From a virus, in the UHGV virus genome UHGV-1769846: a stretch of DNA of 15,384 nucleotides; one strand, written 5' to 3'. Made by a program: the position numbers and the translations under genes. A model generated the notes under the pieces. The model saw only the letters and a list, made by a program, of their open reading frames with translations. It made no database searches and was not told the DNA's origin. Of the stretch, positions 1,087 through 6,002 are shown piece after piece; position 1 is the stretch's first letter; each line of letters opens with the position of its first letter.

Positions 1087-1087
1087 G

Positions 1088-1166
1088 TTGGTTTTTCTCC
1101 ACGGATTTACCGACAACCGAAGCCCTGACTGTTCCAGCAGTTGGGGCTTCACTGTTTTGATTTCTT
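1088..1166 (+). ncRNA. Putative sar-like antisense small RNA covering the ant ribosome-binding site
   Basis: Candidate promoter at 1072-1080 and a plus-strand-specific terminator: 13-bp stem 1119-1131/1138-1150 with two G-U wobbles (A-C mismatches on the other strand), 6-nt loop, then ACUGUUUUGAUUUCUUUG. The transcript would be antisense to the ant SD at 1091-1100. Confidence 0.4.
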
Positions 1167-1507: not shown

Positions 1508-1565
1508 AAGATAGCAAAGTGAGTATATCTAGTCAAAATTTTTTTGCATACACTTTGCTATCAAA
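1508..1565. promoter_or_regulatory. Divergent immI control region (Pant-like promoter and candidate Arc/Mnt operators)
   Basis: Minus-strand promoter TTGACT (plus 1531-1536), 17-bp spacer, TATCTT (plus 1508-1513), upstream of arc. Inverted repeat arms ATAGCAAAGTG (1511-1521) and CACTTTGCTAT (1551-1561) flank a 29-bp AT-rich core. The plus-strand mnt promoter is not cleanly resolved. Confidence 0.5.
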
Positions 1566-1585: not shown

Positions 1586-1834
1586 ATGGCAAAGGGTGTG
1601 TCAATTTCTCCAACTACGGTAAGAATCCCTGAATCTTTACGCGAGGCTCTTGCTGTCAGAGCATCAAAAAATGGTCGCTCTGTTAACTCCGAGATCGTCA
1701 TGATTTTGCAAGCCGCGATTGATGAAGATAGGTCGCCAAAGTCAGTTGAGTCATTTGCTCAGCAAGAAGCTGATAAATTCAAAGAGGCGCTACTTGAGAC
1801 GCTAAAGACCATGTATGCTAAGGATGAAAAATAA
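1586..1834 (+). CDS. mnt: Mnt-like ribbon-helix-helix repressor (82 aa)
   Basis: Translation MAKGVSISPTTVRIPESLREALAVRASKNGRSVNSEIVMILQAAI...FKEALLETLKTMYAK resembles P22 Mnt in both the RHH region and the C-terminal helix. ATG at 1586 is preceded by AGGTG; the track's TTG start at 1544 is rejected. Confidence 0.8.
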   Translation: MAKGVSISPTTVRIPESLREALAVRASKNGRSVNSEIVMILQAAIDEDRSPKSVESFAQQEADKFKEALLETLKTMYAKDEK

Positions 1835-2370
1835 TGCTGCACACAATTCATTTCTTATGCCCTGTTAACACTGCCACTGTTGGGCAACTTCAGAACCACT
1901 GTCTCACCGCATTATCTCAAGGCGCAACTGAATTAAATATCCATATATCAAGTCAGGGAGGGGAAACTGCTGCTGGCTTTACTGCGTATAACTTTCTTAA
2001 GTCACTCCCTGTTACCGTTAGAACTCACAACATAAGCAATGTTGAATCCATAGCTAATATCGTTTTCCTGGCTGGCTCAGAACGTTTCGCAAACCCATTA
2101 TCAAGATTCCTGTTACATCCTCTATTATGGTGCTTTGCCTCCCCAGCCGCCGACCATGCCAGATTGAGAGAGTACGGGAAATGCCTCGATAACGATCTTG
2201 ATCGCTTCGTTGAGACGTTCAATATCGACATCGGAACCCATATTAGGTGGGCATCCCTGATAGCAGACTCGACCATTTTGGATGCTAACAAGGCTCTTGA
2301 GCATGGCATAATTAATTCCATAAAAACTGCAAGGCTGGCATCCAATCAGGCAAACTGGTGGGTTGTTTGA
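1834..2370 (+). CDS. ClpP-like (S14-type) serine peptidase homolog, 178 aa
   Basis: Start overlaps the mnt stop (TAATG). Sequence NIHISSQGGETAAGFTAYNFLKSLPVTVRTHNISNVESIANIVFLAGSERFANPLSRFLLHPLL parallels the ClpP core (YINSPGG...AG..IYD...V.T.C.GQAASMG..LL.AG....R...P.SRVMIHQP). Candidate triad Ser72, His95, Asp145. Confidence 0.7.
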   Translation: MLHTIHFLCPVNTATVGQLQNHCLTALSQGATELNIHISSQGGETAAGFTAYNFLKSLPVTVRTHNISNVESIANIVFLAGSERFANPLSRFLLHPLLWCFASPAADHARLREYGKCLDNDLDRFVETFNIDIGTHIRWASLIADSTILDANKALEHGIINSIKTARLASNQANWWVV

Positions 2371-2394: not shown

Positions 2395-2420
2395 TAAAAA
2401 ACCCACCTGACGGTGGGTTT
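2395..2420. terminator. Bidirectional rho-independent terminator between convergent operons
   Basis: Stem CCCACC (2402-2407), loop TGAC, GGTGGG (2412-2417). Flanked by an A-run (2395-2401), giving a U-run for the minus transcript, and TTT on the plus side. Confidence 0.65.
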
Positions 2421-2868
2421 AGTCAAACATAGTGTTTCTAAAGTCTCTCGCATACCCTGCTAACACTCTCATTCTATTATGATTGTTAGCAGACATGTGA
2501 GCTACAGGATGAAAAAGAGCAATCAATGAATACCTGTTCTCATCAAAAAGATTTTGTGCATAAACGAGAGCGGTATTGGATGTTTTATGCCACTGCAACT
2601 TTTGCGGTGTGCTGATATCTGTGCCATTTTTTATTGGCTCAAATTTATTTTCACCAATTGCTAAATGAAGGTGCATAAGGCCTGCATCTTCAATATCAGG
2701 AGGTCGATGATAAGAGGTGTCTCTGCCAAAATAGCTGGGCAACGTTCCCGTAGACTTGTAGATGATAAAATCATCTACAAGTGTTTGTTTTAAATCAGGA
2801 AACTCAACAAAAACCGGGGAGAAAAAATAGTCAAAACTATCCTGATTATATTCCACGGTTACTTGCAT
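2419..2868 (-). CDS. YafO-family toxin-like protein (149 aa)
   Basis: Motifs DDFIIYKSTGTLPSYFGRD, HLHLA, ALVYAQNLFDE, LIALFHP and NNHNRM line up with E. coli YafO as recalled (FISYKRDGVLPDIFGRD, HIHLA, HLVYCQGAFDE, LIAILKP, NNQMH). GAGGT sits 5 nt upstream of the ATG, and the start is 8 nt after the upstream gene's stop. Confidence 0.7.
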   Translation of the reverse strand: MQVTVEYNQDSFDYFFSPVFVEFPDLKQTLVDDFIIYKSTGTLPSYFGRDTSYHRPPDIEDAGLMHLHLAIGENKFEPIKNGTDISTPQKLQWHKTSNTALVYAQNLFDENRYSLIALFHPVAHMSANNHNRMRVLAGYARDFRNTMFD

Positions 2869-2876
2869 GTTTTACC

Positions 2877-3443
2877 TCAGTGGAAGTTACCAGAGTGAAA
2901 CACACGAGTCCCGTGCTCAGCAAGCGCACGCAAACCAGCCATATCTACGGAACTATCAAAAACAACCGGAACACATGAGCGTTGTTTAATAAGACTATTC
3001 AGGTTGGTTACGGCAGATCTGGCATCAGCAACAACGATATAGATATCTCTTGCGATCTCTTTAAAATCAGCAGAAGCTTCTTTGAATACCGATTTCATTG
3101 CCCCTTCAAGTCCTCTCAATTGATGCTCTATCAATCGAGACTTTTCTGGTTCAATGATAGACAACACATTGTCTACATTCTCATCGGTAGCGTTTGCAAG
3201 AACACGATAAGCGTATTTCAGCATTCGAGACAATTCTTTAATCGAAGACACCGCCTCATGAAGCTCATCATTAGCCCGTTCACTGCTGAATGAGGATTGA
3301 TGGTAAGCGTGCTGAACGTTATCAGTAACAACCACCTCACAACTGAACGCAGAAGCTTGCTGTAATAGCAAACCTATTGCGACTCCAGCTTTGGCAGCGT
3401 TCAAGCTAAACATTTCATCAATCCCATTAGTCTCATTGCTCAT
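2877..3443 (-). CDS. Hypothetical protein (188 aa), upstream partner of the YafO-like gene; no recognisable family
   Basis: ATG at 3443 with a strong AAGGAGG Shine-Dalgarno 5 nt upstream; the track's TTG at 3473 is rejected. Predicted largely helical, with no DNA-binding antitoxin fold that I recognise. Confidence 0.65.
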   Translation of the reverse strand: MSNETNGIDEMFSLNAAKAGVAIGLLLQQASAFSCEVVVTDNVQHAYHQSSFSSERANDELHEAVSSIKELSRMLKYAYRVLANATDENVDNVLSIIEPEKSRLIEHQLRGLEGAMKSVFKEASADFKEIARDIYIVVADARSAVTNLNSLIKQRSCVPVVFDSSVDMAGLRALAEHGTRVFHSGNFH

Positions 3444-3510
3444 ACAAACCTCCTTCTTATCGGAGATTATCAATAGCTATGCATCCATTGAATACACGCT
3501 ATGCGCAATA

Positions 3511-3539
3511 AGTTTACGTCACGTGATATCATTATGCAA
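3511..3539 (-). promoter_or_regulatory. Sigma70-like promoter with palindromic operator candidates for the 188-aa/YafO-like operon
   Basis: Minus strand TTGCAT (plus 3534-3539), 17-bp spacer, TAAACT (plus 3511-3516). The spacer holds overlapping palindromes TCACGTGA (3519-3526) and TGATATCA (3524-3531). Confidence 0.5.
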
Positions 3540-3618
3540 CCACCGTTCTATCACCGACTAACTTTACTCCCACTCCTATACATCATCTGGTATCCTGCGC
3601 AAAACTAAGGAGGTTGGT

Positions 3619-3969
3619 GTGAATGCTCAGTCTGTCATCATGGTTTTCCTTGGGCTGATTGTCGCAAAACTATATCCAGACTGGTGGAAAGGGGCATTAG
3701 CTACTGTCGCCATCTATTTGCTTTTATCCATCGTTAAGCGATCACTCGCTGAGACCGTAAATCAAGCAAAACGTTTCTCATTTAAGAGTTTAATAAACTA
3801 TGTTACTGGGCTTATTTTTTGCCTTTCAATTCTGATCGCTTCGGCTTTTTTGCCCGTATCAATAGCTAATTTTTTTGGCGCACCATATGAGGTAGGTTAT
3901 CTATTCTCTGTTTCCTGTCTTGCCATTGCTCTTCTTTACCTGTGGACGAGATCAAAGAATAAAAATTAG
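3619..3969 (+). CDS. Small integral membrane protein (116 aa, about 4 predicted TM helices); possible superinfection-exclusion type moron
   Basis: GTG start at 3619 with a near-perfect TAAGGAGGT 5 nt upstream. Four hydrophobic segments and a basic C-terminal tail (RSKNKN). Convergent with gene 16. Confidence 0.65.
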   Translation: MNAQSVIMVFLGLIVAKLYPDWWKGALATVAIYLLLSIVKRSLAETVNQAKRFSFKSLINYVTGLIFCLSILIASAFLPVSIANFFGAPYEVGYLFSVSCLAIALLYLWTRSKNKN

Positions 3970-3986
3970 CCATCCGTGGCTGCCAG

Positions 3987-6002
3987 TTATTGAGCTTCTT
4001 TTTGTGATGCCTGTGCGACTCTGGTGAGCGATTGTGTGACCGTACTGATCGCTATGTCATATGCTGTGCTACCTTTTGGCGTATTTGCCAGACGTAACAA
4101 GGCATTTCGTATAACAGGGCTTTCGTATGCCTTCGCAGCTCCTCCTACGACACCAGCAGCAGGAACAACAAACGCAGCCGTTTTTAGCATCCCCGCTAAT
4201 ACTGCTGCGTTTATGATGCCACCACCAACTAACAATCCATAAAGCTGCTGACCATTTAAGTTTTGAACGTTCGCTTTTGCCGCGTGTCTTGTATCGTTGA
4301 GGTATTTAATAACGCCGTCCAGTTCCTTTCCATGTACGCCTTTAAAGAAAGTTGCTGATTGCTTCCTGTTCCGGTGTAACGCATTAATAAACTTTTCAAC
4401 ACTAATATTTCCAGACGGATCAGTCGCCTTATCTACAGCATTCTGAACTATGGCTGCTCGTGCGTTTTGCCTACCATTGTCATCCAGAAGCCTGTAAAGC
4501 TGAGAACGTTCTGATGGGTTTTGGCTAAAAACGAGTTTTGTTACATCCTCAGGTGTAGCCTTGCCGCTGGCTATTGCCTTTTGAACGCGCGTTCTTCCCA
4601 TCATGTCATTGAATCTAGCCCATGAGCGATCAACCCTAGACATATTGGCAGCTTCTTCTGAGCCTAGTTTTTGGGATACTGCTTTTTTCATATCCGCTGT
4701 ATATGCCTTGTAGACAATATCGCTGGCTTTCTGGAGCGTGTCTTTATCAACAGTCTCGTTTGAATTCATGAACCGCTTTCGAAGGTCAGTTCTGTTTTCT
4801 CTCGCCAGACGCAGGTCATTGGGTCCGCTGGTGATATCGTCTTTAAATTGCTGCAAGACTTTTACCGCGGCTCTATCCTGAGATTTGCCCGGGCGGCTTA
4901 ACACGGCAATCTGATTGTCGATAGCTTTTACCGTGTTTGAGAGATCGACAGGGGTATCCCCCATAGCGTCAATTATGCGGTTATATCGCTTTCCTGCTGC
5001 CTCAATGAATTTTTGTTGCCCTTTAGTCGCAGATTCATAAAGCTGTTTATCAGAAATGCCACCCAGACCATCGCTAAATGTTCTGACTAAATTTTCTCGT
5101 GCTTGTTGTTGATTCAGCCGATTCTTACCGGTTCCAAAAAAAGGAACTCTTTCGCCTAATGTCTGAGCCTGACTCTGCATAAAGGTTTTATCTTTCAGCG
5201 TGTCACTGGTCATTAACGGCAGGTTTCTTTCCGACGCAAAATCGACAGCAGCCTTTGCTTCCGGTGACATCTCACCGCGAACAGCCCTGGAAACCGCACT
5301 AACTGTATTTTCCAGCCCCTTGCCAACACCACCAATGCCAGCAGAAATTACCGTTTGTGCAGGATCAATATCTTCTCCGCCAGCAAGGCTGGTGCCACCC
5401 TGTAGTGCTAAATCTGTAGCAGCTGATTTCCCTATGGCACCAAGCACCGTTCCAGCCCTGCCCGCTGGTGTGAACGCTAACGCATTAGCAAGAAACGAAG
5501 TCAGGTCTTGCGGTGATAAACCTGGCTTGTTCAGGGCATAATCACCGGATGGCAGGGAAACGATAGTGTTACCCTTCTCATCCTGCCTTAATTTCGCCCC
5601 CATACTCTGAAGAATCTTTTCCTGAGACGCGTCGGAGCCGAAAAGTTGAGACCATCCAGCCTTCAGGGCATCCATGCTTAGTGAGTTCAACTCAGGGGCA
5701 GCCCCAACATTTTGCAGTCTCTCCATTTCTGGTGTCATTCGGCTTTCACCGGTAACGGCATCGCGCATTGCAGCACCTAAAACAGCCCCTTGCTCAGCAG
5801 AGCGATCTAGTCCTTCCTTCTGCTGAGTGGCAAGCTGTGCATATCCTGATGCAAGTGAGTTGTCTGCTGGCGATTGCTGAACACCTTGTTGTGTTGGCGC
5901 TGACTGACCAGCAAAATACTCATCAATGGCGGACCCAATATCTTCCGTGCTCGTACCATCAGGAAAGGTAAATGTCTTACCATTTGCAGTTACTTTCATC
6001 AT
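3987..6002 (-). CDS. Ejection (injection) protein, P22 gp16 homolog (671 aa)
   Basis: Last gene of the gp7-gp20-gp16 trio by synteny. ATGA start/stop overlap with the upstream gene at 5999-6002. Large Ala/Gly-rich protein. Confidence 0.8.

Follow-up and report, generated by a model that had tools for sequence, protein, structure and literature searches.

What is the role of a ClpP-like peptidase gene that is coupled to the maintenance repressor gene of a P22-like prophage? The question is posed by a 15,384-nucleotide stretch of the virus genome UHGV-1769846 (the window, by which we mean this whole stretch), which corresponds to the immunity-I (immI) end of a P22-like prophage and in which a homologue of the P22 repressor gene mnt is followed by an open reading frame (ORF) for a 178-amino-acid (aa) protein, entered in RefSeq as WP_000903306.1, 'ATP-dependent Clp protease proteolytic subunit'. 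The answer that we tentatively favour is that this protein may be a truncated accessory ClpP of the type of ClpP1 from Pseudomonas plecoglossicida (PpClpP1), carried as cargo in the mnt operon, which would act mainly by pairing with the host ClpP ring and in that way alter proteolysis in the lysogen.

The ClpP fold proposed for the ORF in the initial annotation is borne out by profile and structural comparisons alike. Pfam CLP_protease (PF00574) matched residues 24–165 at 44.4 bits (E=2.2e-11) against a gathering cut-off of 20.2, and an AlphaFold2 (AF2) monomer model built on 27 homologues (mean pLDDT 90.2, pTM 0.87) was aligned by Foldseek with the ClpP structures of E. coli, Thermus and Mycobacterium at TM scores of 0.76–0.81 and a probability of 1.00 (E. 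coli ClpP 0.76–0.80), the long helix at residues 108–132 of the model corresponding to the ClpP handle. On this model the 178-aa protein is a ClpP-fold member of peptidase family S14, with an identity of about 20–23% to canonical ClpPs in the structural alignments. By far the best match in a phmmer search of the PDB was 9UXT (E=1.6e-35 over residues 3–175, the next matches being at 2.5e-07), and Foldseek aligned the model with 9uxt_A at TM scores of 0.92/0.90 and an rmsd of 1.7 Å, with about 38% identity. The entry 9UXT is PpClpP1 (PLoS Pathog 2026; PMC12900304). A fold search of BFVD gave only distant matches (at most 26% identity) to generic ClpP or prohead proteases, and no informative viral relative among them.

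Conservation in the family was read from an alignment of 91 proteins drawn from the 150 best matches among 291 at E≤1e-30 (profile search, 50%-identity cluster representatives), most of these 150 being 180–200 aa long. Ser72 (codon TCC) and His95 (CAT), which had been picked out by eye as an intact catalytic pair, align with Ser97 and His122 of ClpP and are invariant in the 91 representatives, as are G43, R84 and F92, with G42, G48, Y52, N66, A80, E113 and A154 near-invariant. The third residue suggested at the outset, Asp145, did not hold: it aligns with Arg170 of E. coli ClpP, in a column occupied by E, Q, K, R or S in the family, whilst Ser146 occupies the column of the canonical Asp171, in which 42 of the 91 proteins have G, 20 have A and 2 have D. 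Of the full Ser-His-Asp triad that characterizes S14, Ser and His are therefore present and Asp is absent, and the aligned sequences suggest that the family is effectively a Ser-His enzyme without the canonical Asp.

The same alignment showed no axial loops and little of the hydrophobic docking pocket through which ClpX and ClpA are bound. Nothing in the ClpP-like protein corresponds to the first 38 or so residues of E. coli pre-ClpP, which comprise the propeptide and axial loops, the alignment starting at its first beta-strand, and six residues that contribute to the pocket for the IGF/IGL loops of ClpX/ClpA are replaced, mostly by polar ones (Y60N, Y62H, F82S, I90H, L114N and L189K, which correspond to N35, H37, S57, H65, N87 and K164 of the window protein). 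Compared with E. coli ClpP, then, the fold, the positions of the catalytic Ser and His and the GG motif (G42-G43, equivalent to G67-G68) are shared, but the propeptide, the axial loops, most of the pocket, Asp171 (Ser here) and Arg170 (Asp here) are not. The C-terminus carries an (N/R)WWV motif (residues 174–178; 2353–2367) that is conserved in the Enterobacterales phage clade, often with one extra residue, but not in the wider family; it is modelled as a terminal beta-strand and may make a contact close to the apical face.

PpClpP1 offers the closest biochemical comparison for a protein built in this way. It is likewise N-terminally truncated and of similar length (183 aa, against 178 aa here), both proteins lacking the N-terminal axial region, and the conserved S72/H95 pair of the window protein has its equivalent in S73/H96, with a non-acidic residue in the Asp column of both. 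In the Ser73-His96-Pro151 arrangement of PpClpP1 the Ser and the His are indispensable whilst the third residue is dispensable (PMC12900304), and it is at this third position that the two proteins differ, Pro151 being replaced by Ser146. PpClpP1 is a homotetradecamer, seen as a 14-mer by cryo-EM, with an axial pore of 42.7 Å and a peptidase activity about 13-fold below that of the canonical PpClpP2; alone it did not pull down ClpX and degraded neither casein nor GFP-ssrA, but together with canonical ClpP it formed a stable heterotetradecamer that bound ClpX and degraded substrates slightly better (PMC12900304). The sequence features behind this behaviour are all found in the window protein, and its largely lost docking pocket and missing axial loops agree with the absent ClpX pull-down of PpClpP1. 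The two differ further in that PpClpP1 is encoded by a lone chromosomal gene whereas the window gene is phage-encoded and predicted to be co-transcribed with a repressor gene, in that the (N/R)WWV C-terminus belongs to the Enterobacterales phage clade, and in that PpClpP1 is known from biochemistry whilst the window protein is known here from its sequence and a monomer model.

The concept of an atypical ClpP paralogue with little or no activity when alone is shared with P. aeruginosa ClpP2, Listeria ClpP1 and Mycobacterium ClpP1P2, second isoforms that do not recruit ClpX on their own and that work in a ring-on-ring hybrid with canonical ClpP (PMC13056064; PMC12451819). These isoforms are, however, full-length chromosomal proteins of another lineage, whereas the window protein is truncated and phage-borne. 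P. aeruginosa ClpP2 has been reported to modulate ClpXP assembly via ClpP1P2 hybrids (PMC13056064), and this effect, together with the missing canonical Asp, the lost ClpX pocket and the low activity of PpClpP1, would fit a protein whose catalysis is irrelevant and which acts as an assembly modulator or poison subunit, titrating or capping host ClpP rings. We consider such a role distinctly improbable, in that the invariance of Ser72, His95, G43, R84 and F92 across the 91 representatives is hard to explain without catalysis and in that the Ser and His mutants of PpClpP1 are inactive.

A second explanation that the family comparisons bring up is that of a displaced or relic prohead (head maturation) protease of the ClpP type. 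The best PHROG match of the protein is indeed the head maturation protease family phrog_94 (7e-21), NCBIfam Clp_rel_HeadMat is matched at E=5e-13, and 'head maturation protease' is the product name given in the GenBank record of phage phiv205-1 (MN340231). The similarity to such enzymes is, however, confined to the protease domain and falls well below the NCBIfam cut-offs (49.3 bits against 120 for NF045542 and 49.4 against 475 for NF045540), the 178 residues comprise the protease domain only, with no C-terminal extension for scaffold or capsid targeting, and the closest relative is a cellular ClpP paralogue. The gene, moreover, lies within immI, outside the head module and on the strand opposite the entire late operon, which argues against a prohead protease of a P22-type phage, and it is under strong purifying selection (see below). 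The capsid gene of the prophage is P22-type, and capsids of this type are built on a scaffold that is recycled, proteolysis playing no part. The position contradicts this explanation as plainly as the scores and the architecture do, leaving it scarcely credible, and the earlier view that morphogenesis does not account for the gene stands.

The ClpP-like gene begins within the stop codon of the gene before it. Its coordinates and the overlap at TAATG, from which coupling to mnt had been proposed, were both confirmed (Table 1): 1831–1836 reads ATAATG, the mnt stop TAA and the ClpP-like ATG having one base in common, and the Shine-Dalgarno-like AAGGA lies within the mnt 3' end, 9 nt upstream of the ATG. 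The same junction, AAGGAT.A.AAATAATG, occurs in Pectobacterium (locus L087) and in the lambda-like phage PhiR12_1 (locus L002), and it has been retained in both although synonymous divergence is saturated. A comparison with the 80%-identical orthologue from a Pectobacterium P22-like prophage gave a dN of 0.129, a dS of 1.72 and a dN/dS of 0.075, and on this measure the 178-aa ORF is a real gene under strong purifying selection and no chance ORF.

The gene upstream encodes an 82-aa protein. Residues 11–79, which are essentially the full length, align with P22 Mnt at 36.5% identity, Pfam Arc is matched at 9.5e-11, and the Pectobacterium orthologue matches PF11423 Repressor_Mnt. Judged by these matches, by the ribbon-helix-helix (RHH) N-domain with a C-terminal oligomerization region, by its length of about 82 aa and by its divergent orientation from arc-ant, it is a true P22-type Mnt homologue. 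An RHH gene that comes first and overlaps the next gene by 1 nt is also the typical layout of a type II toxin-antitoxin (TA) pair, in which the ClpP-like protein would be the toxin. The upstream gene, however, codes for a homologue of Mnt over its full length and occupies the usual place in immI, the Mnt C-terminal sequence is unchanged in Kapi1, a phage without the ClpP-like gene, and relatives of the ClpP-like gene without an RHH neighbour are found both in 34 of 80 viral loci and as chromosomal genes of Massilia and Pseudomonas (see below). The TA pair is already largely refuted on these grounds and we hold it to be highly improbable.

On the downstream side a hairpin begins 29 bases past the ClpP-like stop, at the positional equivalent of P22 t_mnt. 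Its arms, AAACCCACC and GGTGGGTTT, were found in a repeat search, and its RNA fold has a free energy of −23.3 kcal/mol (z = −3.3). By analogy with P22 it is likely to be a bidirectional terminator that closes both the mnt-clpP transcript and a convergent YafO-like operon on the other side; its terminator activity is treated as presumptive because the hairpin was missing from the output of a simple terminator scan. The arrangement as a whole is that of P22 immI, with ant, sar, arc, a divergent mnt and a small cargo slot between mnt and the terminator, but the slot holds the 59-aa orf59a in P22 and the ClpP-like gene here. The order after P22 mnt is orf59a and then t_mnt, with sieA farther on under its own promoter.

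The distribution of the gene extends well beyond this one locus. In a tblastn search the protein was found in 6 of 50,697 phage records, namely in the three P22-like phages phiv205-1, EC.P3 and E212 and in three lambda-like PhiR12 phages; P22 and Sf6, the two genomes singled out for comparison in the initial annotation, were not among the six matching records. Among 5,426 complete E. coli genomes, 126 (about 2%) carry 80% or more of the length of the gene, in every case on the chromosome, and about 48 further genomes have a divergent paralogue. The mnt gene upstream comes in several alleles, with recombination joints in its 3' end (the match starting at query 254 or 295), and the same mnt allele is also found without the ClpP-like gene; what follows it then is a gene with a P63C domain or a pair with a Panacea domain.

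Two of the matching phage records deserve a separate description. In PhiR12_1 (PV340549.1) the antirepressor gene, a small ORF, the mnt homologue and the ClpP-like gene form one block at 3606–5618, which lies between the tail genes K and L of a lambda-like siphovirus as an immI-type module in a different phage type. E212 (locus L003, MZ043897.1) has at 4680–5000 a transposase-like insertion, with no annotated gene, that by eye resembles the end of an IS21-type istB helper gene; the insertion appears to replace part of ant together with arc-mnt, which would leave the ClpP-like gene without its normal promoter. E212 might be taken as a case of the ClpP-like gene without mnt, but it was treated as uninformative because the insertion, recognized by eye, appears to replace the arc-mnt region.

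A survey of 80 loci in IMG/VR separated two kinds of context. In 44 of them a Mnt-like stop overlaps the ClpP-like ATG at offset 0, in another (L137) a different Arc-type RHH gene overlaps the ClpP-like start, and within the E. coli and Pectobacterium clade an RHH gene is immediately upstream in 45 of 46 loci. The remaining 34 of the 80 loci, with 52–75% identity, have no RHH gene, and in each of the 33 with a further ORF of 120 aa or more downstream, the next such ORF lies on the opposite strand. The Leclercia, Klebsiella and IMG/VR loci read in detail carry it as a stand-alone antisense gene, either between the lysis cassette and the terminase genes or within the tail modules of Pantoea-type prophages. 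In Massilia and Pseudomonas the family member is an ordinary chromosomal gene, with neighbours that include an HIU hydrolase, a polysaccharide deacetylase, a CNNM transporter, an aldo/keto reductase, an MFS transporter and a LysR regulator. Across 160 loci we found no conserved partner gene apart from the RHH association of the one clade. A locus of the E. coli lambdoid-prophage clade (L166) has a 182-aa ORF (3374–3922, plus strand) upstream of, and on the same strand as, a 52%-identical ClpP-like gene (4001–4561); the ORF has a sub-threshold match to Abi_2 (E=0.04), and by their sequences the pair may be a two-gene moron between terminase and lysis genes.

This is the distribution of a moron, a cellular accessory ClpP paralogue that has been taken up by temperate phages and is sited outside late transcription. 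That the relatives stand alone or are chromosomal weighs against an immI-specific, a toxin or a morphogenetic role. It bears most directly on the possibility of an immI regulatory protease, which would cleave or help to degrade Ant, Arc, Mnt or a C2-type repressor and so set the threshold for maintenance or induction. The Arc/Mnt-type RHH gene upstream in 45 of 46 clade loci, in at least three different alleles, would be expected of such a protease, as would the transfer of the whole ant-arc-mnt-clpP cassette as a unit into a lambda-like phage, and some related immI regions have a ClpX-type zinc-finger gene between arc and ant. The 34 viral loci of the 52–75%-identity clades, however, have neither an RHH gene nor immI, P22 is without the ClpP-like gene, the occurrence of the same mnt allele without it means that immI works in its absence, and the protein lacks a surface on which an unfoldase could dock to hand over a folded regulator. 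The Ant/Arc-specific role suggested at first is weakened accordingly by relatives that stand alone in prophages without immI, and we regard a regulatory protease of immI as quite improbable.

The main rival to an accessory ClpP isoform is a stand-alone, gate-less peptidase for superinfection exclusion or defence, which would work without host ClpP and would degrade the unfolded or ejected proteins of an incoming phage or trigger abortive infection. The region between mnt and gene 16 is a cargo hotspot: P22 carries sieA there, in relatives with the same mnt the slot is taken by a TA pair with a Panacea domain or by a P63C protein, and a YafO-like toxin pair adjoins the gene in the window. The gene is presumably expressed in the lysogen, it is antisense to the late genes in all contexts, and the missing N-terminal gate predicts an open pore. 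A scan of PADLOC-DB v2 (E≤0.1) nevertheless gave no defence-family match for the protein, for its 52%-identical relative or for the neighbouring genes, no sensor or partner gene is conserved alongside, the Massilia and Pseudomonas members are ordinary chromosomal genes outside defence islands, and PpClpP1 alone, as noted above, left both model substrates intact. The exclusion or abortive-infection role raised in the initial annotation has thus gained no direct support beyond its place in a cargo hotspot, and we judge it unlikely.

The accessory ClpP isoform that we tentatively favour would work as follows. The ClpP-like gene would be transcribed from Pmnt together with the maintenance repressor gene and translated by coupling at TAATG, and since it would lie on the mnt transcript and be translated in this coupled manner, we propose that the protein is made in the lysogen rather than alongside the late gene products. 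Its homology with PpClpP1 predicts heptameric rings and 14-mers, a pore that is wide open and a peptidase of low activity; a phage ring alone would be unable to recruit an unfoldase. Stacked on a host ClpP ring, by contrast, it would be part of a hybrid core that the host ClpX or ClpA feeds via the host ring, and this hybrid core would change the amount or the specificity of Clp proteolysis in the lysogen, as a form of lysogenic conversion. The gene structure, the fold, the conserved residues, the operon coupling, the distribution and the purifying selection are what the analysis showed; the oligomeric state, the hybrid with E. coli ClpP, expression from Pmnt and any phenotype we infer.

Several points weigh against this scheme. 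A hybrid with E. coli ClpP is a cross-genus extrapolation, given the identity of only about 38% to PpClpP1; the fit between the phage and host rings is uncertain because the inter-ring sensor Arg170 is Asp145 here, in a variable column; and the benefit to the phage is unclear because the gain in activity of the PpClpP1 hybrid is small. The RHH-repressor association in 45 of 46 E. coli and Pectobacterium loci, which the scheme ignores, could also reflect a link to immI. A broader statement, that a cellular ClpP ring blind to the ATPase has been acquired by the temperate phages of Enterobacterales, is expressed from lysogenic transcripts (here that of the Mnt maintenance operon), caps host ClpP heptamers and reprograms proteolysis by ClpXP/ClpAP in the lysogen, seems to us possible but rather doubtful.

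Many E. coli regulators are under the control of ClpXP and ClpAP, among them RpoS, lambda O, several antitoxins and the fragments of LexA and phage repressors. If the proposed scheme is true, a second, unfoldase-blind ClpP ring added by a prophage would amount to a new way of lysogenic conversion, in which the phage swaps the protease core and so tunes prophage stability, stress and virulence traits of the host or the fate of the regulators of superinfecting phages. It would also be the first phage-borne case of the atypical second-ClpP isoforms that are now linked to virulence phenotypes in Pseudomonas, with carriers (about 2% of complete E. coli genomes) that include K1 strains such as APEC O1 as well as the type strain ATCC 11775. 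The kind of protein, a truncated ClpP of the PpClpP1 type, has been known since 2026; what is new is the phage setting, the conserved coupling to Mnt and the moron behaviour, and our literature searches returned nothing on the ClpP-like gene, its phage-borne setting, its Mnt coupling or its moron behaviour. The names in current use, ATP-dependent Clp protease subunit or head maturation protease (MN340231), are misleading. For phiv205-1, deletion of the whole prophage lowers biofilm formation and adhesion (Liu et al., 2020, as cited in PMC10052878); as described there these are effects of the whole prophage and so cannot be assigned to the ClpP-like gene. The mechanistic function proposed here draws on homology and may serve as a testable lead on how phages manipulate host Clp.

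Table 1. Features around the mnt-clpP operon, in window coordinates.
Feature	Position	Strand	Remarks
ant	RefSeq start 1086, end 184	−	antirepressor gene of immI
sar antisense RNA	1087–1153	+	full-length Rfam match, 83.9 bits
extra 57-aa ORF between arc and sar/ant	1149–1322	−	phrog_17642, no cysteines
arc	1319–1507	−	divergent from mnt homologue
putative arc-mnt intergenic control region	1510–1562		perfect 12-bp inverted repeat, 1510–1521 / 1551–1562
mnt homologue, 82 aa, ribbon-helix-helix maintenance repressor	1586–1834	+	first gene of two-gene operon
translational-coupling junction	1820–1836	+	AAGGA 1820–1824, TAA 1832–1834, ATG 1834–1836
ClpP-like peptidase subunit, 178 aa	1834–2370	+	N-terminally truncated; Ser72 2047–2049, His95 2116–2118
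hairpin, 9-bp stem, 4-nt loop	2399–2420		A-run and T-run on either side

The prophage itself could be matched to known strains. Positions 1500–2420 are 100% identical to a prophage that is integrated beside a tRNA-Arg gene and an intS integrase gene in E. coli strains which include APEC O1 and the type strain ATCC 11775, several of the strains being K1. It encodes a large tailspike and an acetyltransferase, and we take it to be of the CUS-3 type of K1 phage. The GC content of the cargo region (0.38–0.45) is below that of the late genes (0.50). For ant the RefSeq start at 1086 was preferred to the GTG start of the ORF finder, which would give 322 aa, because of the position of sar. Between arc and mnt, an inverted-repeat search found the 12-bp halves GATAGCAAAGTG and CACTTTGCTATC, 29 nt apart, which are candidate operator half-sites for Arc or Mnt in the region of the divergent promoters Pant and Pmnt, the assignment of promoters and operator being made by analogy with the P22 layout. 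A promoter-like site on the minus strand at 1536–1508 would be Pant; Pmnt was not picked up by the simple promoter scan.

Beyond the hairpin lies further cargo, and the region that corresponds to P22 sieA differs from P22 in holding a YafO-like pair and an ORF for a membrane protein. The first of these is a convergent two-gene unit (2419–3473, minus strand) with a 149-aa YafO-family homologue (Pfam YafO_toxin 3.4e-22; 79 bits in NCBIfam, where the cut-off is 153). The gene before it encodes a protein of 188–198 aa that has no Pfam domain (phrog_8416). By its sequence the unit looks like an atypical TA or defence pair at the P22 sieA position, and in relatives a Panacea-domain pair stands in its place. 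The ORF at 3619–3969 (plus strand) encodes a hydrophobic protein of 116 aa, probably a multi-pass membrane protein, with no family match; it adjoins the gp16-like ejection gene and has the position and orientation of P22 sieA, and by this analogy its product may serve in exclusion. The slot between arc and sar/ant is occupied in some related immI regions by a gene for a C4 zinc-finger protein of the ClpX type that stands alone (Pfam zf-C4_ClpX 7e-11; L094 3641–3823, L122 3307–3489 and L137 3028–3252), which in L122 and L137 occurs together with the ClpP-like gene, as a second Clp-related immI cargo.

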